Shown here in pieces: positions 285 through 50,776 of a DNA stretch of 64,000 bases; the first letter of the stretch is position 1, and each line of letters opens with the position of its first letter. A program made the position numbers and the translations under genes. Source of the DNA: Candidatus Micrarchaeota archaeon (GTDB taxonomy: Archaea > Micrarchaeota > Micrarchaeia > Micrarchaeales > CABMGC01); contig DAHXNY010000001.1 of the NCBI GenBank assembly GCA_027365175.1, positions 51,052-115,051 on the forward strand. Reading direction: 5' to 3'. The notes under the pieces are model-generated. The model worked only from the letters and a program-made list of their open reading frames with translations. It ran no database searches and was not told the DNA's origin.

Positions 285-1736
285 TCAGTCTACTCTGATG
301 AATAGAGGGGAGCCTTTCTTCGGCAGATAGCCTATTTTTGAGAATCTGCAATCCTCCAGCCTGCCTAATGGTATTCCCAACTGTTTGCTTATTTTCTCTG
401 CAGTCTCAGGCATGAATGGAGAAATCAATATAGATATTACCCTGCATGCTTCCACCGAATTGTATAGAGCATTTGAGAGCGCCTCTCCCTCAAGCTCCCA
501 AGGCTTGGTATCGTTTATGTACTTGTTAGAGGCTTTTATGAACCTCCATACTGTTTCCAGGGCCTTGTAGGTATCATATCGGTCCATCTCCTCCTGGAAG
601 GTCTTTAGTTCGAGGCTCTTTTCGAGCTCCGGCCTTCCTTCCAGCTTGCCTCCGGACTTCTCAGTCATTGTGAGTACCCTGTATACAAGGTTGCCGAGGT
701 CCGAGGCAAGTTCATTGTTGTTTCTTGCTTTGAGCAGCTGCTCTGAAAAATCGCCATCGTCTCCTAAAGGCATCTCCCTCATGAGGAAGTACCTGAGTGC
801 GTCTACGGAATATTTGTCTACGAGCTCCAGAGGATCAGTAACGTTTCCAAGAGACTTGGACATCTTCCTTCCTTCAACGATATAATGCCCTGTCACCAGT
901 ACTGACTTTGGAGGCTTGAAGCCTGCGGACATGAGCATGGCTGGCCATATGACAGCATGGAACCACATTATGTCCTTGCCTACAATATGTATGTCTGCGG
1001 GCCAGTACTTCGGCTCGGAGTCCGGCCAGCCTAGAGCGGAGAGGTAATTGATAAGCGCATCTACCCACACGTATACCGTGTGCTTCTCGTTGAATGTGAA
1101 GGGTATCCCCCACTTTACTGAAGGTCTGGTCATGCTTAGGTCTTTAAGCCCTTCCTTAACCCTGTTAACTATCTCCAGGGTTCTCTTCCTTGGAAGTATG
1201 AAATCCGGATTTTCAGAATAGTACTCAAGGAGCCTGTCCTGGTATCTGGAGAGCCTGAAGTAGTAGGTCTCTTCCTTAAGCTTCTTTACCTCCCTTCCAC
1301 ATTCTGGGCATTTCCCATCTATAAGCTGTGATTCTGGAATGAAGGTCTCATCGGGAGTGCAGTACCAACCCTCGTATACCCCTTCATATATGTCTCCGTT
1401 GTCATGCATCAGCTTGACAAAGTGCCTGACAGCTTTTTCGTGGCGCAACTCTGTTGTCCTTATGAAATCGTTGTTTGATATGTTAAGCTTCTTCCATGCT
1501 TTCCGGAAGCTTTCCGAAAGCTGATCCACATGCTCCTGCGGAGAGAGACCATTCTCCTGAGCCTTCTTTGCCACCTTCTCCCCATGCTCATCAGTGCCTG
1601 TAAGGAAGAATGTGTCATCGCCTTTTAGCCTGTGCCACCTTGCCAGTACATCCGCTACGGTGACAGCGTACGCATGGCCTATATGCGGCTTCCCGTTCAG
1701 ATAGAATATTGGCGTGGTTACGTAGAATCTCGGCAT
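285..1736 (-). CDS. metG: methionyl-tRNA synthetase (short form)
   Basis: Class I signature PHIGHAY near the N-terminus, KMSKS motif (RKMSKSLGN) and a CPECG zinc knuckle. The overall MetRS pattern holds over 483 aa. Confidence 0.95.
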   Translation of the reverse strand: MPRFYVTTPIFYLNGKPHIGHAYAVTVADVLARWHRLKGDDTFFLTGTDEHGEKVAKKAQENGLSPQEHVDQLSESFRKAWKKLNISNNDFIRTTELRHEKAVRHFVKLMHDNGDIYEGVYEGWYCTPDETFIPESQLIDGKCPECGREVKKLKEETYYFRLSRYQDRLLEYYSENPDFILPRKRTLEIVNRVKEGLKDLSMTRPSVKWGIPFTFNEKHTVYVWVDALINYLSALGWPDSEPKYWPADIHIVGKDIMWFHAVIWPAMLMSAGFKPPKSVLVTGHYIVEGRKMSKSLGNVTDPLELVDKYSVDALRYFLMREMPLGDDGDFSEQLLKARNNNELASDLGNLVYRVLTMTEKSGGKLEGRPELEKSLELKTFQEEMDRYDTYKALETVWRFIKASNKYINDTKPWELEGEALSNALYNSVEACRVISILISPFMPETAEKISKQLGIPLGRLEDCRFSKIGYLPKKGSPLFIRVD

Positions 1737-1809
1737 GTTGATACGAATCTAATTATACACTCAGTTATAAAGCGTTTCCTTCGGAAAGAGCACTTTTTGC
1801 ACATATCGA

Positions 1810-1828
1810 TGAATAGTGGAACTGCACC
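1810..1828 (+). repeat. exact 19-mer TGAATAGTGGAACTGCACC (copy of 50640-50658) in the metG-mcm divergent intergenic region
   Basis: Identical 19 nt at both loci. It ends 64 nt upstream of the mcm ATG and lies upstream of a ttatataaaa TATA-like element. Confidence 0.8.
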
Positions 1829-1892
1829 GGTAAGCGTAGTTAGTTATATAAAATATCGACATTGAGTTATACTTAGTCAGGGGGCTGATTTT

Positions 1893-3950
1893 ATGGACGT
1901 TATAGAAAAGGAGCAGATAGAGGAGAAGTTCCTTGAGTTTTACAATTCCTATTATATTGACGGGATAAACGAACTGTATCTAGAGTATCCTGAGAGGAGG
2001 AGCATAGACATTGACATAGGCAACCTTGAGAAGTTCGATATTGACCTGGCTACAGAACTCGTAAATGATCCTGATTCGATTCTGCCTGTTGCAAATTCTG
2101 CACTCGCTAAGCTGAATCCGCATGAAAAGGCGAAGGAGCAGGCGCATGCAAGATTCTTCGGGTCTAGCATAGATGCGCCTTTGATACAGAATGTCGGTTC
2201 TGAGTACATAGGCCGTATGATAACCGTGGATTCTTTGGTTGTCAAGAGGTCTGAGATAATACCTAAGATAAGTTTCGCAACCTACAAGTGCATGTTCTGC
2301 GACACTGTAGTAAAGGAGCAGATAACGAAGGAGGAGGTTCCTGAAGTCTGCCCTCAGTGCAAGAGGAAGGCGCTGAAGCAGATAAACAAGGAGTCGGAAT
2401 TCATAAACATGCAGAGGATTGCAGTTCAGGACCCGCTTGAGAAGCTGAAGGGCTCTACTCCAACATGGCAGCTTGAGGTATGGCTTGCGGATGATCTTGT
2501 CAACACCGTTCTTCCTGGAGACAGGGTGGAGATAACGGGCGTTCTGAGGATAAGGCCCAGGCGCGCGTTCCGTGGAAAGGAGGATAAGCTGCTCTTCACT
2601 GTTTTCTTTGAAGCCAACGCGATAATACATAAACAGAAGGAGTTTGCAGAGCTTGACATAACGGATGATGATGAGAGGCAGATAATAGAGCTTTCAAAGG
2701 ACCCGAGGATATTTGAGAAGATTGCAGAATCCATAGCCCCTTCCATATACGGACATGATGATATAAAGAAGGCTCTTGCTCTCCAGCTGTTTGGGGGCAC
2801 TCCGGACAAGCAGCTGATAGACGGAGGAATGATAAGGAACGATATACACATATTGCTCATAGGAGATCCTGGAAGCGCGAAGACAAGACTGCTGCAGGCT
2901 GTGACTAGCCTTGTGCCTAAAGGAATATATGTCAGCGGAAAGTCTACAAGCGCTGCAGGACTCACCGCATCCGCAGAGCGTGATGAGTTCTCTGAAGGCG
3001 GCTGGACGCTCAAGGCAGGTGCTCTGGTATTAGGATCCGGGGGAGAGGTCAGCATAGACGAATTCGACAAGATAGGAGAGGATGACAAATCCGCTCTCCA
3101 CGAAGCCCTGGAATCACAGACGATAAGCGTTGCTAAGGCAGGAATAGTAGCAAGATTCTCTGCGAAGACTTCGGTGCTTGCTGCTGCGAACCCAAAGTAC
3201 GGAAGATTTGAGACTACGGCTTATCCCGTTGACCAGTTCAACATACCTGCGCCGCTCATGTCAAGATTCGACCTGATATTCCCGATAAAGGACGTTATGG
3301 ACGAGGAGCAGGACAAGAAGATAGCAAAGCATATACTCATGCAGCATGAAGTTGCGGGAAATTCAAATGCAGGCATAACGATTGCGTTTGATGAGCTTAA
3401 GAAACCGCCCATGGACCATGAAATTCTTAGAAAGTACATAGCTTATGCAAAGAGGCACGTAAAGCCGAGGCTGACTCCTGATGCGTCTGCAAGGATAGAG
3501 GATTTCTACATACAGCTTAGGTCCAGAGGTGCGAAACAGGGCACTACTCCGATAACTGCAAGGCAGATAGAGGGACTGATAAGGCTTGCAGAGGCAAGTG
3601 CAAAATCCAAGCTTATAGACACGGTATCTGATAAGGATGCAGAATTATCAATAAAGCTGTTTGATTATATGCTGAGCACATTGGGAGTCGATAGCGAGGG
3701 CAGGAGGGACATAGACGTCATAATGGGCATACCTAAGGAGAAGGTGGCGAAGATTGGAAAGCTCCTCAACGTTATAAAGAAGATTGATGCGGAGGAGAAC
3801 GGGGCAAGGATGGTAAGGATCCTTGAAGAGGCAGAGAAGGAAGGTATCGACCGTTCCACAACAACCAGATATATGGCAGAGCTTGAGCGTTCAGGGGATA
3901 TCTACTCTCCTAAACAGGGAGTATATAAGCTTGTAAAGCGTGAGGAGTAG
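1893..3950 (+). CDS. mcm: MCM replicative helicase
   Basis: Zn finger CMFCDT..CPQCKRK, Walker A GDPGSAKT, Walker B SIDEFDK, SRFD arginine-finger region and a C-terminal wHTH. 685 aa with no intein. Confidence 0.95.
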   Translation: MDVIEKEQIEEKFLEFYNSYYIDGINELYLEYPERRSIDIDIGNLEKFDIDLATELVNDPDSILPVANSALAKLNPHEKAKEQAHARFFGSSIDAPLIQNVGSEYIGRMITVDSLVVKRSEIIPKISFATYKCMFCDTVVKEQITKEEVPEVCPQCKRKALKQINKESEFINMQRIAVQDPLEKLKGSTPTWQLEVWLADDLVNTVLPGDRVEITGVLRIRPRRAFRGKEDKLLFTVFFEANAIIHKQKEFAELDITDDDERQIIELSKDPRIFEKIAESIAPSIYGHDDIKKALALQLFGGTPDKQLIDGGMIRNDIHILLIGDPGSAKTRLLQAVTSLVPKGIYVSGKSTSAAGLTASAERDEFSEGGWTLKAGALVLGSGGEVSIDEFDKIGEDDKSALHEALESQTISVAKAGIVARFSAKTSVLAAANPKYGRFETTAYPVDQFNIPAPLMSRFDLIFPIKDVMDEEQDKKIAKHILMQHEVAGNSNAGITIAFDELKKPPMDHEILRKYIAYAKRHVKPRLTPDASARIEDFYIQLRSRGAKQGTTPITARQIEGLIRLAEASAKSKLIDTVSDKDAELSIKLFDYMLSTLGVDSEGRRDIDVIMGIPKEKVAKIGKLLNVIKKIDAEENGARMVRILEEAEKEGIDRSTTTRYMAELERSGDIYSPKQGVYKLVKREE

Positions 3951-17430: not shown

Positions 17431-20400
17431 ATGTCAAAATCCCATGCGGATAAGGATTCGGCGCGGTCCAAAAAACGTTCGAAGAAGGAGCAGATATCAT
17501 TAGAGTACATGATGATATTTGCATTCGCATTCCTTATAGTTGCGGTTGTTGTGGTCTATCTTTATGTCACAGGAGTGCACAATACCACTTATACTAATTC
17601 ATACTGCTATCTGACACCGGATATGCCCTGCCAGGGAATGTATGTGATAGGCAATTCCGTTTCTCCAACAAATGCAAAGGCATATGTGATATTTACTAAT
17701 GAAAAGGGCATCGGCATAAACGTTAGGCCTGGGTCTTTCTACTTCTACCCTAGTGCAAGCAATACAGTTTATTCTGGGGAGTGCATCCCCTCCAATGTAC
17801 CGCAGGGTGGTGTTGCCGTATGCAATGTTACTGTTAACAACTTGAACGGAGGATTATCTGCAGGAGAGCAGGTGAACCCTAAGTTCAATATCGCATACAG
17901 TGTTTGCAGCAATAATTATTGTAATGGATTGAGTGCAAATGCCCCTGTATTCAATACCACAGGCACAGGCACAACATATGTTGCAACCGGTGCCCCATCG
18001 CTGTATTATGTTACTGTAAAGAGTAGTAGCATAAACGTTACTGTGGATGGAGTGGAGTATGCACCAGGTTCAAAACTGGCAGTGTTTAAAGGGATAAGAT
18101 ACACTCTGTTCGGAGAGGTTCCTGCAGGTTATAATTTTGGTTCATGGACAGGCACAGGTGGAATCATTATTGTCTCTTCTAGTTCACAGACAACTGCGTT
18201 TACAGCTTCTGCAAATGGCACAGTATACGGAAGTAAGACAGCGATAACCTCTTCAACGTCTTCTACTTCTACAACATCGACAACTTCTAGCGTATTGTTT
18301 TATCAATTAAATGAGTATGCCAATCCTTCTGCAGAAGGGACGGTATCTCCGGGCACAGGAAGCTATCCTGCCGGTTCCTCAGTAACAATAAAGGCAACAC
18401 CTGACACAGGGTATCATTTTTTAGATTGGACGTGTTATGGCACGGGATGCTATTCTGGAACAAGCTCTTCTGCGACATTGACTATGGATACGGCTAGTAT
18501 CCAGGAGACGGCTAATTTTGCAATAAACAGTTACACATTTACAGAATCGGCAAATCCGTCTGCAGGAGGAACTGCGACTCCTGGGACCGGGACTTATAAT
18601 TACGGTTCTTCCGTAACACTTGGAGAGACTCCTAACGCAGGATACCATTTTGTTGACTGGACCTGCTCTGGAACCGGATGCTATTCTGGAACAAGCACTT
18701 CGCCAACCATCATAATAGAGGGTGCAATTACAGAGACGGCCAATTTCGCACTGGACTCATATACACTTACTACCGGAGCGAGCCCCTCCGGCAGCGGAAC
18801 AGTTTCCCCATCAAGCGGAAATTATAATTATGGATCGGCTGTAACCATATCTGAAACGCCAGTTGCATCCAACACCTTCACAGGATGGTCGTGCAGCGGG
18901 ACAGGCTGCTATTCAGGGACAGCAACATCAAACACCATAATAATCAAGAGTGATATGACCGAGACCGCAAGCTTCTCTCCTTACCAGCCTTTCACAGAAC
19001 TTGTCAATAACGCAGGTTATGGGACGGTATCTCCGGGATCAAATAGCGTACCTTACGGATCTGTAATAGATATAACCGAGGCTCCCACCACAGGGCACTA
19101 TTTCGTTAGCTGGACAGGAAGCGGGACAGGAAGCTACAGCGGAACTGCAACATCGGCGTATGTCACTGTGAATAACCCAATTACAGAGACGGCCAATTTC
19201 GCCGCGTATACATATGTGGTATCCACAGCAGTAAGCCCGTCAGGTTCAGGAAGCGCAACAGGAGGCGGAACTTATGACTATGGATCATCTGCAAGTTTAT
19301 CTGCTATAGCAAATTCAGGATATGCATTCTCCTCATGGTCATGCACAGGCACATGCCCTAGCGGCACCTCATCTACATCAAATCCATGGACGGTGACTGT
19401 AACAGGCACTGCAACCTATACTGCACAGTTTATAGATACATGTGGTGGTTCTGTATCGTATACAGTTCCTAATGGCATACCTTACACGGTGACAGTGCCT
19501 GCAGGTTGTACAACCGCAACTGTCACGCTCAATGGAGCCGGAGGAGGCGGAGGAGGAGATTCCACATTGATATATGAGACCGAGTCTACTGGAGGAAGCA
19601 CATTTTATTCTTGTGAGCCGTTTAGCACCAAATTTGTGACAGGCAGTGGTATGATAGATGTGCCTGGAGGCAGTGGTGGTAATGGGGCGAGTCTGTCAGG
19701 GAACATCGCAGTATCAGCTGGACAGGCATTATATGTATGGGTTGGTGGCGGAGGAGGCGGAGGATCTTCTGATCCGAATACCCAGCCTGCAAATGCAGCA
19801 GGTGGGGCAGGAGGGACTAATGGAGGAGGAGCAGGAGGAAGCGGCGTTACTGCTACAGAGGTCGCACCGTATGGATATTGCCCTTCAGGCGGAGCCGGAG
19901 GAGGCGGAGGGTTCTCTGCAATAGGAACCTCGACAACATCGGCAGGCTGGCTTGCTGCTGCCGGAGGAGGGGGAGGGGGAGGAGGTGCAGCATATCAAAG
20001 CGATCGGATAAATCCTGAAGGAGGAAGTGGCGGGGCAAGTGGAAATGGTGGAAGCAATGGATATACCACCGTAAGCGGAGAAGGCATTGGAGGAGGAGGC
20101 GCGACACTGTCTTCTGCAGGAAGTGGCGGGGCATACGGAGGTTCCCCAGGTTCATCGCTATCAGGAGGCGCAGGTTATACAGGATTTAATGTGCACACGG
20201 TTTCATGTTCTTCGTTCGCAAGCCAGGTGCCAGTTACAGGAGGAGGTAGCGGGGGTGGCGGAGGAGGCTACTATGGTGGTGGCGGAGGAGGAAGTAATAA
20301 TCAAAATACAAATCCATGCTCTACAGCGTCCGGAGGAGGAGGCGGAGGAGGATCTTCGTGGTGGTCAGGCTCTTTCATAGAGACAGGATATACTGCAAAT

Positions 20401-20514
20401 AGTATTGTAGGAGGAGCTACAGGTTGCTATTATGGAGGAGATTATCCACTTTCATGCGGTACCAGTGGCAATCCGGGCAACGATGGATCGGTTACAATCA
20501 CATGGTCGGGATGA
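17431..20514 (+). CDS. large cell-surface protein: class III (type IV pilin-like) signal peptide, pilin-like head, Ser/Thr linker, 5-6 InlB-B-type repeats, C-terminal glycine-rich (ALK/LTK GRD-like) domain
   Basis: The N-terminus is a basic stretch followed by QISLEYMMIFAFAFLIVAVVVV (DUF361-like QxSxEY plus a hydrophobic helix). Repeats have a 76-aa period and end in ETANFA. The C-terminal pattern is TVPAGCTTATVTLNGAGGGGGG..GQALYVWVGGGGGGG..GGGGGGYYGGGGGG. Confidence 0.85.
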   Translation: MSKSHADKDSARSKKRSKKEQISLEYMMIFAFAFLIVAVVVVYLYVTGVHNTTYTNSYCYLTPDMPCQGMYVIGNSVSPTNAKAYVIFTNEKGIGINVRPGSFYFYPSASNTVYSGECIPSNVPQGGVAVCNVTVNNLNGGLSAGEQVNPKFNIAYSVCSNNYCNGLSANAPVFNTTGTGTTYVATGAPSLYYVTVKSSSINVTVDGVEYAPGSKLAVFKGIRYTLFGEVPAGYNFGSWTGTGGIIIVSSSSQTTAFTASANGTVYGSKTAITSSTSSTSTTSTTSSVLFYQLNEYANPSAEGTVSPGTGSYPAGSSVTIKATPDTGYHFLDWTCYGTGCYSGTSSSATLTMDTASIQETANFAINSYTFTESANPSAGGTATPGTGTYNYGSSVTLGETPNAGYHFVDWTCSGTGCYSGTSTSPTIIIEGAITETANFALDSYTLTTGASPSGSGTVSPSSGNYNYGSAVTISETPVASNTFTGWSCSGTGCYSGTATSNTIIIKSDMTETASFSPYQPFTELVNNAGYGTVSPGSNSVPYGSVIDITEAPTTGHYFVSWTGSGTGSYSGTATSAYVTVNNPITETANFAAYTYVVSTAVSPSGSGSATGGGTYDYGSSASLSAIANSGYAFSSWSCTGTCPSGTSSTSNPWTVTVTGTATYTAQFIDTCGGSVSYTVPNGIPYTVTVPAGCTTATVTLNGAGGGGGGDSTLIYETESTGGSTFYSCEPFSTKFVTGSGMIDVPGGSGGNGASLSGNIAVSAGQALYVWVGGGGGGGSSDPNTQPANAAGGAGGTNGGGAGGSGVTATEVAPYGYCPSGGAGGGGGFSAIGTSTTSAGWLAAAGGGGGGGGAAYQSDRINPEGGSGGASGNGGSNGYTTVSGEGIGGGGATLSSAGSGGAYGGSPGSSLSGGAGYTGFNVHTVSCSSFASQVPVTGGGSGGGGGGYYGGGGGGSNNQNTNPCSTASGGGGGGGSSWWSGSFIETGYTANSIVGGATGCYYGGDYPLSCGTSGNPGNDGSVTITWSG
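18295..19431 (+). repeat. five tandem ~228-bp (76-aa) coding repeats inside the surface-protein gene
   Basis: The aa repeats are anchored by (A/S)NF(A/S) at residues 361, 437, 513 and 588 and AQF at 665. Shared core: ANPSxxGTxxPGTGxYxYGSSVT..TP..GYHFxxWTCxGTGCYSGT. A more degenerate copy precedes the Ser/Thr linker. Confidence 0.85.
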
Positions 20515-20701
20515 CTGGTCTTTGGTTCATGGCCCTTTCTGTTGACATTTACGTCATCAAAAACCACGTGTTGGCATGGCTTCGGACTCGGATTAATATT
20601 GTAGTTCGCATAACGTTAGCAAAGGCATATAAACCTTAGTATTCTATAAATAGCGGAAGTGTCTGTGCTAGTCCCTACTCTTTATCTTTATAGGTGTATG
20701 T

Positions 20702-37590: not shown

Positions 37591-37645
37591 GTCCATTGTA
37601 CAGTTGTTAAGGATCCTGGTCTGTCACTTATTACCGTATTTTGAT

Positions 37646-37666
37646 TGCTCCCATCGGGATTTGGAC
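37646..37666 (-). repeat. partial duplicate of the tRNA-Glu 3' end (att-like direct repeat)
   Basis: tgctcccatcgggatttgGac here versus tgctcccatcgggatttgAac at 39010-39030 (20/21 identical, same orientation). A weaker match (agggttg) continues after a gap. Confidence 0.7.
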
Positions 37667-37729
37667 TTTAGGGTTGCTTCGTGAATTGATTGCTTGCAAG
37701 GAATCGTATCGTTCTGGAATCCGCGTGCA

Positions 37730-38905
37730 TCACTCCAAATCAGAAAGCAGCTTTTTTATACTAACAAATTTTATATGACATCCAACTTCTTTTAAATCCG
37801 ATTCTTCCCCTTCCCAGAACACAATATATGCAGTCTTTGGATTGTAGGAATTTATGAACGCACGCATTCCCTTACTCAGAGTTCCGGGAGCTGCTTTTGT
37901 CTTTACTTCGATAGGTATCGCCCCGTCTCTTCCTTGTACTACAAAATCTACTTCTGCCCCTCCTTTCGTATGCCAGTACCTGACCTCCTTATCAGCCTTT
38001 ATAAGCTCCGATAGAACATAATTCTCAAAGAGCTTTCCCTTATTTTCATGGCTTACTTGAAACTCTTTCGCTATCACGTTCCTTATGCCCGTGTCGATAA
38101 AATATAACTTTGGTTGTTTTACTATCTCCTTTAGTTTATTTTTATAAAACGGGTGTATTCTGACTATGAGATAGCTTTTTTCCATCGCATCGAGGTATTT
38201 TTTGACTGATTGGAACGATATGCTTAATTCTTTGCAGATGCTGTCGTAGGATAAAATGTTGCCGATGCAGTGCGATAAGTAGATTGAAAGCCGCTCTAGG
38301 CTGTCTATATCGTCTATTTTAAACGTCCTGGCGATATCTTTTAATACCATGGTTTCATACAAATCTCTGAGGAGAGACTCCTTGCCGGAATTTTCTTTGG
38401 TCAGGACGACTTTTGGGTATCCGCCGTAGATCATGTGCTCTTCAATAAGACGATAAAGAATCTTCTTGGTTGTTTCTTTTTGCTCCTTCGCAGATAAGAA
38501 TTCGTTTAGGGAGAACTGAAAAAGTTTTATTACCGAAACTCTACCAACCAGCCATCCGAGCACATCTTTGCCCAACAGGATTTGGGATGAAGACGTGAGC
38601 CATATCTTTTCCCCCTTGTCTGCAAGGTACTTTAATTTCCTGCCTGGATCATTCCCGTATTGCACTTCGTCTAGTATAGTTGTGCGTTCAGCCGAAATAT
38701 ACTGGTTTTCGAACCTTTTTATGTCCGAATCAAAAAGCTCCTTTACATCGGGATCATCAAAGAACAGGTAGCGCGCCTTTGTTGCTTCTCCCTGTACCTT
38801 AAGGAATGTCGTTTTGCCTGCTTGCCTTGGCCCGACCACTGCCAAAATGGCATTTAGTTTGGATGCATTGATGAATTCCCTGGTTATTTTCCGTTCCACA
38901 TACAT
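37730..38905 (-). CDS. AAA ATPase fused to a DUF4143/PD-(D/E)xK nuclease-like domain (COG1373-type)
   Basis: Walker A GPRQAGKTT and a Walker B-like LFFDD. The C-terminal region GGAEVDFVV...IPIEVK is typical of the restriction-endonuclease fold. Confidence 0.8.
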   Translation of the reverse strand: MYVERKITREFINASKLNAILAVVGPRQAGKTTFLKVQGEATKARYLFFDDPDVKELFDSDIKRFENQYISAERTTILDEVQYGNDPGRKLKYLADKGEKIWLTSSSQILLGKDVLGWLVGRVSVIKLFQFSLNEFLSAKEQKETTKKILYRLIEEHMIYGGYPKVVLTKENSGKESLLRDLYETMVLKDIARTFKIDDIDSLERLSIYLSHCIGNILSYDSICKELSISFQSVKKYLDAMEKSYLIVRIHPFYKNKLKEIVKQPKLYFIDTGIRNVIAKEFQVSHENKGKLFENYVLSELIKADKEVRYWHTKGGAEVDFVVQGRDGAIPIEVKTKAAPGTLSKGMRAFINSYNPKTAYIVFWEGEESDLKEVGCHIKFVSIKKLLSDLE

Positions 38906-44713: not shown

Positions 44714-44957
44714 ATAAACTCCCCAGATTTTTGTAGATAGGAAGCTGCTTATGCCCCGATATAACAGGGGATTAGCGTTCCCAATATTAAATAAGATACA
44801 TTAATATATAATAAGGAGTGTGTAAAAAAAGAAAAGATAGTTGAATATAGTAGGAAGAGGCCAGCAGCGTTTTCACGTGCTGGCAAGGCGACCAGTTACT
44901 CCTCCTCTGATAAAGAACTCGTACTGTAGAGCTCGTTTTAAAGATTTAAAAATCTTT

Positions 44958-44970
44958 CTGAATAGTGGAA
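44958..44970 (+). repeat. 13-nt partial copy (ctgaatagtggaa) of the 19-mer motif found at 1810 and 50640
   Basis: Exact 13-mer shared with 50639-50651. It lies between an atttaaaaat TATA-like element (44943-44952) and ATG 44979. Confidence 0.5.
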
Positions 44971-50090: not shown

Positions 50091-50537
50091 TTAGCCTATT
50101 TTCTCTCCTATATTGTTTTCTATTATAAACATAACATCGTCATTGCTGTTTATATCTATTATCTCGTTTTTGTTGTATGGCCCTAGTTTTGTGCCAGTGT
50201 TTGTTATTATTTCTGGTACGTCCATATTTATCTTGATTTTGGTAGAATTTTGTATTTTACCTTTCTTCAAAACCGCTCTTATTTTAGAATATATCTCGTT
50301 TTCCTCATCAGCGACTTCGTTGCCTATCTGCTTGTCATATGCAATGTACATTAGTATTTTCTGGGTCCTTTTTTCTTTTAGAAAGCCTAGTGTGTTGGTG
50401 ATGTTTGTCTTTTCAACCTCATTTTTGGAGTTTCTGACCAGCTCTTCAGCTTCCTTATAAAAATCTTTTTTCATAGGGAGGAGTTTGCTTGTGTTCTTCT
50501 CTTTTTTATAAAAATCTATAAGATCTAAGTAATCCAT
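50091..50537 (-). CDS. GINS-family protein (Gins51/COG1711-like, tentative)
   Basis: The N-terminal helical A-domain pattern is LIDFYKKEK..LLPMKKDFYKEAEELV..KRTQKILMYIAY. The small C-terminal B-domain pattern is INMDVPEIITNTGTKLGPYNKNEIIDI..DVMFIIENNIGEKI. Confidence 0.55.
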   Translation of the reverse strand: MDYLDLIDFYKKEKNTSKLLPMKKDFYKEAEELVRNSKNEVEKTNITNTLGFLKEKRTQKILMYIAYDKQIGNEVADEENEIYSKIRAVLKKGKIQNSTKIKINMDVPEIITNTGTKLGPYNKNEIIDINSNDDVMFIIENNIGEKIG

Positions 50538-50549
50538 TTTTACACAACA

Positions 50550-50659
50550 GGGTTGAGTTCCACTAATATTTTATTTTTCTTTGCAAAATAAAAATAAATA
50601 CTAAAGCGTAATTTACTACTATATATTATATAAGTAACCTGAATAGTGGAACTGCACCC
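50550..50659. repeat. inverted 16-bp repeat (GGGTTGAGTTCCACTA / TAGTGGAACTGCACCC) flanking a 78-bp AT-rich spacer
   Basis: The arms match 14/16 after reverse-complementing. The spacer has 13 G/C in 78 nt by hand count. The right arm is embedded in a 19-mer that recurs exactly at 1810-1828. Confidence 0.8.
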
Positions 50660-50668
50660 TCTACTGTA

Positions 50669-50743
50669 TAGCGAGAGGTGGATTTGAACCACCGATCTCC
50701 GGGTTATGAGCCCGGCGGGCACTCCAGTCTACCCTACCTCGCT
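50669..50743 (-). tRNA. initiator tRNA-Met(CAU)
   Basis: Hand-folded with an A1:U72 acceptor end (AGCGAGG/TCTCGCT). The anticodon stem CCGGG/CCCGG carries three consecutive G:C pairs above the loop CTCATAA. T arm GGTGG-TTCAAAT-CCACC. Confidence 0.85.
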
Positions 50744-50776
50744 ACTGTAATATCAGAAGGACAAGATTACTTTACC

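Follow-up and report, generated by a model that had tools for sequence, protein, structure and literature searches.

The promoter regions of the replicative helicase gene mcm and of a putative GINS-family gene, gins, share an identical 19-bp sequence, TGAATAGTGGAACTGCACC, in a 64-kb stretch of a Micrarchaeota chromosome (contig DAHXNY010000001.1, positions 51,052 to 115,051; this whole stretch is called the window here and is numbered from its first nucleotide). The 19-mer was confirmed as a genuine DNA cis-element that is common to mcm and gins and conserved across Micrarchaeota. We give about an even chance to the following explanation: the 19-mer would be the Micrarchaeota version of the origin recognition box (ORB), the type of site bound by Orc1/Cdc6, the pair of copies at gins would be a candidate replication origin, and the single copy at mcm would be a promoter-proximal regulatory site. 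The features on which this explanation is built are the following.

1810-1828, plus strand: mcm-proximal box, an ORB-like 19-mer with the core GAATAGTGGAA at 1811-1821; exact 19-mer, with comparative conservation
1844-1853, plus strand: TATA-like element of the mcm promoter, TTATATAAAA; conserved block at a fixed distance from the box core
1893-3950, plus strand: mcm, replicative helicase of 685 aa; Pfam MCM_N, MCM_OB, MCM (4.5e-86), MCM_lid and MCM_C (C-terminal winged helix)
50091-50537, minus strand: gins, putative GINS-family gene of 148 aa, first in a gins-L44e-eIF2alpha-PAC2 cluster; Pfam, NCBIfam, profile and synteny
50551-50569, minus strand: gins-module box 2, the inverted copy ATATTAGTGGAACTCAACC, which ends 13 nt upstream of the gins ATG
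50570-50639, no strand: AT-rich spacer of 70 nt with about 84% A+T, candidate duplex-unwinding element (DUE); holds the TATA-like elements of the gins promoter
50640-50658, plus strand: gins-module box 1, the second exact 19-mer, pointing away from gins; 9 nt past the ARAGORN 3' end of tRNA-Met (50668)
50668-50744, minus strand: tRNA-Met (CAT), initiator-type; ARAGORN and Rfam, with its features read from the sequence

An earlier note on this DNA had picked out the identical copies at 1810-1828 and 50640-50658, both on the plus strand, and judged them unlikely to have arisen by chance. This judgement holds. In 100 dinucleotide-preserving shuffles the mean number of matches was 0.01 and none of the shuffles reached two, and no other match with three or fewer mismatches is found on either strand of the window. 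The layout described at mcm was likewise accurate: the mcm ATG (1893) follows the end of the 19-mer by 64 nt, TTATATAAAA stands at 1844-1853, and a short dyad at 1775-1787 lies 22 nt upstream of the box. The picture of two copies, however, was incomplete. A third copy, inverted and partial, lies at 50551-50569; its minus-strand reading ATATTAGTGGAACTCAACC matches the 19-mer at 14 of 19 positions, with the 10-mer core TAGTGGAACT intact. The 11-mer core GAATAGTGGAA occurs exactly once more, as a fourth copy, at 44960-44970 on the plus strand. Because the inverted copy had not been seen, the origin-like architecture at gins was missed. Exact 10-mer cores number three in the window and each of them is intergenic. 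When the window was scanned with a matrix, seven matches scored at least 15, against 0.55 in shuffles; two matrix matches lie inside coding sequence, in rpoA' (26281) and rpoA'' (26963). The conserved core, GAATAGTGGAA[C/G]T, lacks internal dyad symmetry and is found in both orientations.

It is extremely improbable that the sequence is shared by coincidence or is a remnant of duplication or mobile DNA, such as the attL/attR of an element at a tRNA gene or a dispersed repeat, and these origins are effectively excluded. One copy does abut a tRNA gene, which is a classic integration target, and archaeal integrated elements often carry mcm genes. However, the 48.8-kb interval between the two 19-mers contains no integrase; it contains housekeeping genes (RNA polymerase subunits, SRP54, aminoacyl-tRNA synthetases, radA, eIF2alpha, L44e) and five further tRNA genes. 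Since this interval is ordinary core chromosome, the att-site reading is excluded, and an integrated element with att repeats at tRNA-Met was rejected. Both sites are also conserved independently in many genomes with mcm and gins on different contigs. The exact 18-mer is not dispersed, either: it was found at 15 loci of the Joint Genome Institute (JGI) metagenome collection. Two of them come from relatives, a single assembly having the 18-mer at its orthologous mcm and gins sites; the remaining 13 have no similarity to the window and mostly resemble coding sequence of unrelated organisms. A dispersed repeat was rejected, since the window has just the copies given here and the 18-mer is found in relatives at orthologous sites only.

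Conservation of the box at mcm reaches far into the phylum. The window, which forms part of a 271,788-bp JGI metagenome contig, is assigned to Micrarchaeota (DPANN) from 30 related loci of metagenome-assembled genomes, whose MCM is 45-98% identical, and the identity of mcm itself is solid, as its product has the Pfam MCM domain set including the C-terminal winged helix. Eleven genomes, with MCM identities as low as 45%, have an exact core at -81 to -100 of the mcm ATG, in one orientation or the other. The orientation is the same as in the window in L004, L005, L006, L007 and L025, and it is inverted in L008, L010, L014, L028 and L029; the core of L012 has one mismatch. Every exact core match in 413 kb of related DNA is the mcm-upstream position, with about 0.2 expected anywhere by chance. 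In an alignment of seven close relatives (A3), the invariant blocks of the promoter include the box core, the TATA element and the ribosome-binding/start region, and the TATA block TTATATAAAATA keeps a constant spacing downstream of the box core. A matrix was built from gins-site boxes only, and is therefore independent of the mcm sites. Of 31 Micrarchaeota genomes, 19 have a significant best match to it in the 140 nt that precede mcm, and in roughly a dozen of these no other match in the whole locus scores higher. Thus, the link between mcm and gins through one cis-element, as proposed in the earlier note, reflects neither a chance match nor a dispersed repeat. The proposal that the box occupies an activator-type position fits mcm, where its position relative to the core promoter is conserved and the box-TATA distance is constant within clades. 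It does not extend to gins, where one copy is downstream of a TATA-like element and therefore in a repressor-type position.

At gins, boxes 1 and 2 form an inverted pair around the AT-rich spacer, and this module is sited between the initiator tRNA-Met and the gins-L44e-eIF2alpha operon. The tRNA-Met is regarded as the initiator tRNA because it has A1:U72 and three G:C pairs (GGG/CCC) at the base of the anticodon stem. The open reading frame (ORF) at 50091-50537 had been called GINS-like, and it probably belongs to the GINS family, a reading supported from several sides, though weakly by any single method: Pfam GINS23_N gives a weak match, NCBIfam Gins23 a match of 1.5e-5 that is under the curated cut-off, and the family profile matches the PDB GINS chains 9moj_C, 3anw_A and 7yil_A at 2-4e-4. 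In addition, the ORF is immediately 5' of L44e-eIF2alpha, as in the published association of Gins15 with the L44E-S27E-aIF2alpha-Nop10 (LSIN) genes (PMC2643942). The TATA-like elements of the gins promoter are found at 50620-50633 and at about 50566-50578 on the minus strand, so that box 2 is just downstream of a TATA-like element. Of all 75-nt stretches of the window, the one that contains the spacer is second in A+T content.

The order TFE, tRNA-Met (CAT), box 1, AT-rich spacer, inverted box 2 and gins is kept in six close relatives (alignment A1) and in four distant lineages (L065, L067, L068 and L070) whose GINS is 35-44% identical, and both boxes are conserved in the two groups. The geometry is conserved as well. 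Over nine lineages the boxes are 85-95 nt apart from centre to centre, and 88-89 nt in six of the nine; the spacer, measured from the TTCCACTATT-type to the ATAGTGGAA-type core match, is 71-81 nt long and has 76-83% A+T. The sequence of the spacer is unrelated between distant lineages, and the distance from box to tRNA (11-28 nt) and that from box to ATG vary; the tRNA-Met itself adjoins the box pair in all nine lineages examined. In L070, box 2 is the identical 18-mer, GAATAGTGGAACTGCACC, though GINS is only 35% identical. Inverted initiator-type boxes that flank an AT-rich stretch are the architecture of an oriC, and the two boxes of the module, about 89 bp apart around the spacer, may represent a minimal ORB-DUE-ORB origin. 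Because the module overlaps the gins promoter, occupancy by the initiator would simultaneously gate transcription of gins.

The same comparisons bear on a role at the level of RNA or tRNA, in which the sequence would be part of a small RNA, a trailer or processing signal of the tRNA, or a structure of the 5'-untranslated region common to the mcm and gins transcripts. Box 1 begins only 9 nt past the ARAGORN 3' end of tRNA-Met, box 2 may fall in the 5' leader of gins, and boxes 1 and 2 have 10 nt of complementarity through which they could pair within a single RNA covering both. However, the distance of the box from the tRNA end is variable, as given above, and the mcm box is probably not transcribed together with mcm because it is upstream of the TATA element. 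Furthermore, the orientation at mcm flips between clades while the position is kept, and hence the element acts on DNA as an asymmetric site and not as part of an RNA. Even at E<=1, Rfam returned no family near its gathering score except tRNA itself, and a known RNA family for the box regions was ruled out on this ground. A function in RNA is therefore very unlikely and is effectively excluded.

The likeness of the element to ORBs is seen in its right half. The mini-ORB of Pyrococcus, 13 bp long with the sequence TTCCAGTGGAACT (PMC1904270), shares AGTGGAACT with the Micrarchaeota core. The euryarchaeal ORB consensus, GTTCCAGTGGAAAC-AAA----GGGGG, consists of the core mini-ORB and a G-string (PMC1868953), and AGTGGAA is common to it and the Micrarchaeota box. 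The right half of the box, AGTGGAAC(T), is identical to both the Pyrococcus mini-ORB and the euryarchaeal consensus, and the left TTCC is changed to GAAT in all Micrarchaeota copies. A G-string, GGGGT, follows GGAA by 4 nt in box 1 of L065, box 2 of L067, both boxes of L068 and box 1 of L070, so that box 1 carries it in three of the four distant lineages (L065, L068 and L070); examples from these distant Micrarchaeota are GAATAGCGGAATTGTGGGGTGT, GATTAGTGGACATGTGGGGTAT and GAATAGTGGCAATCTGGGGTGA. The offset of 4 nt compares with about 5 nt in the ORBs of marine group II (MG-II, Poseidoniales-type) archaea, two loci of which were obtained as outgroups from the mcm search.

L035 5811-5831, strand n/a: MG-II ORB upstream of mcm
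L036 5755-5772 and 5807-5829, strand n/a: MG-II ORBs upstream of mcm

These are textbook ORBs with a G-string, CTCCAGTGGAAATCAAGGGGT and ACTTCCAGTGGAAGAAGGGGGGT, and they are located 70-130 nt upstream of the mcm start. No orc1 was found within 6 kb of them in either locus, the neighbours being a PCC-domain gene and a hydrolase gene. This suggests that the association of ORBs with mcm exists outside Micrarchaeota. Since canonical ORBs occupy a comparable mcm-upstream position in MG-II, a link from Orc1 to mcm could be old or recurrent in Archaea.

An initiator-type Orc1/Cdc6 is encoded in this genome. The orc1/cdc6 gene (401 aa; AAA+, Cdc6_lid and WHD_Cdc6 domains) is on the same contig (L072, 18524-19729), 6.7 kb past the right end of the window and about 20 kb from the gins module. 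Among solved structures, the closest relatives of the protein are the ORB-bound Orc1-1 of Sulfolobus (2QBY_A, 2.3e-66) and the ORC1 of Aeropyrum (2V1U_A, 2.5e-57), with Orc1-3 and ORC2 far behind. Micrarchaeota Orc1 proteins are unusually well conserved: they are 68-99% identical over the 120 best matches, and 80-88% identical in residues 101-200 of the AAA+ part. Orc1 is 71% identical in the genome in which GINS is 35% identical and box 2 is the identical 18-mer (L070/L073), and there orc1 is about 27 kb from gins. No orc1 was found within the window or in 60 related loci, and the 10 kb that separate the window from orc1 contain no box. Nor was any box, ORB-like repeat or repeat-flanked AT-rich stretch found within 10 kb on either side of orc1 in the L070/L073 genome. 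Accordingly, a canonical orc1-adjacent origin is not evident, and the gins module is the sole origin-like structure seen. As a separate observation, orc1/cdc6 is preceded by a parA/minD-like ATPase gene with a 4-nt overlap or a 4-nt gap (L072 18524-20351, equivalent to about 70.7-72.5 kb in window numbering, and L073 9202-11230), and this gene pair is conserved in two very distant Micrarchaeota.

The fourth core copy extends the set of promoters beyond mcm and gins.

44960-44970, plus strand: fourth copy of the 11-mer core, between the TATA-like TTTAAAAAT and the probable start of DUF92/TIGR00297 (44979), in the divergent intergenic region of radA and DUF92

DUF92/TIGR00297 is a membrane-protein gene, and both the position and the orientation of its box are retained in L068 (TAATAGTGGAAAT) and L070 (AAATAGCGGAAT). 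The box is found between TATA and ATG at gins box 2 and at DUF92 in three lineages; at DUF92 it occupies a repressor-type position. No box was found proximal to radA or at the gene of an SSB-like OB-fold protein in the window and related DNA examined. Two more box-like sequences were noticed. A weaker match at 20648-20665, AAATAGCGGAAGTG / AAATAGCGGAAGTGTCTG (matrix score 16.4), precedes rpoH, the first gene of the RNA polymerase operon; it is followed after about 25 nt by a TATA-like element and after 40-75 nt, depending on the start codon, by rpoH itself. In L020, an extra strong box, GAATAGCGGAAGTGAG, is present at 1442-1457. An unannotated ORF for an acidic product of 151 aa begins 75 nt downstream, beyond a TATA-like element; this ORF has no Pfam match and no homologue among the related loci compared.

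The earlier note had left two meanings for the shared element, shared initiator binding or co-regulation, and the evidence favours the former: likeness to ORBs, the G-string, the inverted pair and the Orc1-1-type gene all point to the initiator. The box would then be an ORB variant bound by a monomer of Orc1/Cdc6 at an asymmetric site. At mcm, a protein on the single box, at its fixed distance upstream of TATA, could help or hinder recruitment of TBP/TFB, and at DUF92 a protein on the single box between TATA and the start codon would occupy a repressor-type position. The logic may be that of DnaA boxes, in which one initiator marks the origin and tunes the expression of the helicase components that it loads. 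A bolder form of this idea can be put forward only tentatively: the initiator-tRNA/gins ORB-DUE-ORB module (about 88-89 bp) would be the origin of Micrarchaeota chromosomes, located away from orc1, and the single Orc1-1-type initiator would also be a transcription factor for mcm and gins through solitary boxes, an archaeal counterpart of the DnaA regulon.

The main rival is that the box is the operator of a dedicated transcription factor other than Orc1, with a small regulon of mcm, gins-L44e-eIF2alpha, DUF92 and possibly rpoH-rpoB; the gins pair would then be a double operator for looping or cooperative repression and not an origin. We consider this possible, if rather unlikely. Much of what weighs against an ORB counts in its favour. 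Every copy is promoter-proximal and keeps a fixed spacing to a TATA-like element, which it precedes at mcm and follows, ahead of the ATG, at gins box 2 and DUF92, and this fits an ordinary factor equally well; the extra copy in L020, with TATA between the box and an unrelated ORF, and the weaker copy ahead of rpoH conform to the same picture. The TTCC half of the mini-ORB is missing: this motif of the Pyrococcus mini-ORB is described as perfectly conserved (PMC1904270), and Micrarchaeota have GAAT in its place. Cdc6 of Pyrococcus binds only weakly to single mini-ORBs and was not found on scattered copies in vivo (PMC1904270), and because of this the solitary boxes of mcm and DUF92 are weakened as targets of Orc1. 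In addition, the gins module is not beside orc1, whereas every characterised archaeal origin has been reported to be adjacent to its initiator gene, either orc1/cdc6 or whiP (PMC4010727).

Further observations weigh against the ORB and origin explanation. The three window copies are without the G-string and have GCACC or CAACC there instead. The candidate origin has just two boxes, and the AT-richness of its spacer is not unique, ranking second among many promoter regions at 80-87%. GC skew over the 64 kb tracks the coding strand and gives no origin signal, and the genes on either side of the gins module share the minus-strand orientation. No box was found upstream of polB (L065), gyrB, tmk/dcd or the orc1 operon in the window and related DNA examined.

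On the other hand, a dedicated factor does not account for several features of the element. An asymmetric site used in either orientation is unusual for dimeric archaeal regulators, which favour palindromes, and the box has no dyad symmetry. The G-string of distant lineages at an ORB-like spacing and the ORBs at mcm in MG-II would be left as coincidences. A spacing of 88-89 bp around a spacer that is AT-rich and drifts in sequence is seen more typically at origins than at promoters, and none of the sites has a candidate regulator gene in conserved synteny with it.

The short dyad near the mcm box, which the earlier note had pointed out next to the box, does not belong to the element.

1775-1787, no strand: dyad TTTCC-TTC-GGAAA; abuts the TTTATAA TATA-like element (B recognition element/TATA) of the divergent metS promoter
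285-1736, minus strand: metS, divergent from mcm

By chance, 64 kb should contain about 60 perfect 5-bp dyads with a 3-nt loop (64000/4^5), and a dyad of this kind is not notable alone. In L004 and L025 it reads TTTTC...GAAAA, both arms having changed together, and L048 has a version with one mismatch. It is absent from L005, L006 and L007, all of which retain the box; in alignment A3, the sequence 5' of the box core, including the dyad, diverges in these three relatives. The dyad was therefore rejected as a component of the box element. It belongs to the metS promoter side and is retained among the closest relatives only.

The rest of the window is ordinary core chromosome, with SRP54, several aminoacyl-tRNA synthetase genes, the rpoH-B''-B'-A'-A'' operon, radA, tmk/dcd, gyrBA and six tRNA genes (ARAGORN and Rfam). 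A predicted surface protein of 1027 aa is encoded at 17431-20514; it combines five Flg_new_2 (InlB B-repeat-like) domains with a long Gly-rich C-terminus of low complexity, and the tandem and direct repeats at 18.3-20.4 kb are explained by this gene. At 37730-38905 on the minus strand, a gene for an AAA_14 + DUF4143 ATPase (391 aa) adjoins tRNA-Glu, and near it, at 37645-37673, is a tRNA-like fragment that resembles the 3' halves of tRNAs; together they may be the remnant of an integration event. Between DUF92 and radA there is a conserved hairpin, found at 44851-44910 in the window (sense minus, towards radA), at about 13040-13100 in L068 and at about 13065-13125 in L070. It has an invariant asymmetric loop (TA(T)ACTGGTCGCCTT), and RNAalifold gives 18 pairs, three of them with compensatory changes. 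In L068, a TATA-like element is located about 27 nt upstream of it. The hairpin has no match in Rfam, and it is probably an undescribed small RNA or a leader element of radA.

ORBs and origins of the ORB-DUE-ORB type are well known. What appears to be new, judging from the literature searched, is a phylum-wide variant of ORB type in DPANN, its siting beside the initiator tRNA and gins instead of orc1, and the conserved solitary copies in promoters of genes for the Cdc45-MCM-GINS (CMG) helicase. Micrarchaeota are mostly uncultured, and to our knowledge nothing on origins or on the control of cell-cycle genes in DPANN, Micrarchaeota included, has been established experimentally. In the literature searched, there was no description of an ORB upstream of mcm, nor of the origins or the control of cell-cycle genes in DPANN or Micrarchaeota. 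The gins module offers a sequence-defined candidate for the Micrarchaeota origin, one that would break the rule of origin predictors that the origin is next to orc1. It would also imply a simple circuit, with the recognition box of the initiator placed in the promoters of the helicase (mcm) and of its activator (gins). If the parallel with MG-II holds, control of mcm transcription by the initiator may be a general and unnoticed feature of archaea.

Compared with the ORB and mini-ORB systems of Sulfolobus, Pyrococcus and Haloferax, the Micrarchaeota system is alike in having a short asymmetric site, inverted copies around an AT-rich stretch and an encoded protein of Orc1-1 type, and it differs in having, in addition, conserved single copies in the mcm and DUF92 promoters. 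An ORB of Sulfolobus is occupied by one Orc1-1 monomer, which binds with a defined polarity, and inverted ORB2 and ORB3 flank an AT-rich unwinding element, both being essential (PMC12141716). The gins module resembles this ORB2-DUE-ORB3 arrangement of oriC1 in its two inverted boxes, AT-rich middle, conserved geometry and overlap with the promoter of the neighbouring gene. In contrast to oriC1, its neighbours are gins and the initiator tRNA and not orc1, which is 20-27 kb away beside the parA-like gene, and no third box or ucm-like motif was identified at the module.

Members of the Orc1 family may also act away from origins. Orc1-2 of Sulfolobus reportedly recognises a different short motif, ANTTTC. 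This protein has been described as a non-initiator paralogue and a global DNA-damage regulator (PMC9738581), and in Pyrococcus a cluster of ORBs lies inside the dp1 gene, next to oriC (PMC1904270). These two cases are precedents for Orc1-family proteins or ORBs at replication and repair genes, away from the site of unwinding. They differ from Micrarchaeota, in which a single gene of Orc1-1 type was seen and the box stands alone close to a promoter.

Finally, bacterial DnaA boxes are also found outside oriC, and DnaA is a transcription factor for dnaA, nrdAB and other genes. The proteins are different, Orc1/Cdc6 being AAA+ with a winged helix as opposed to DnaA, and the Micrarchaeota regulon seen is very small. 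Nevertheless, an initiator-type box at a candidate origin and in promoters of replication genes is common to both, which suggests that initiation could be coupled to the expression of replisome parts in Micrarchaeota, too.

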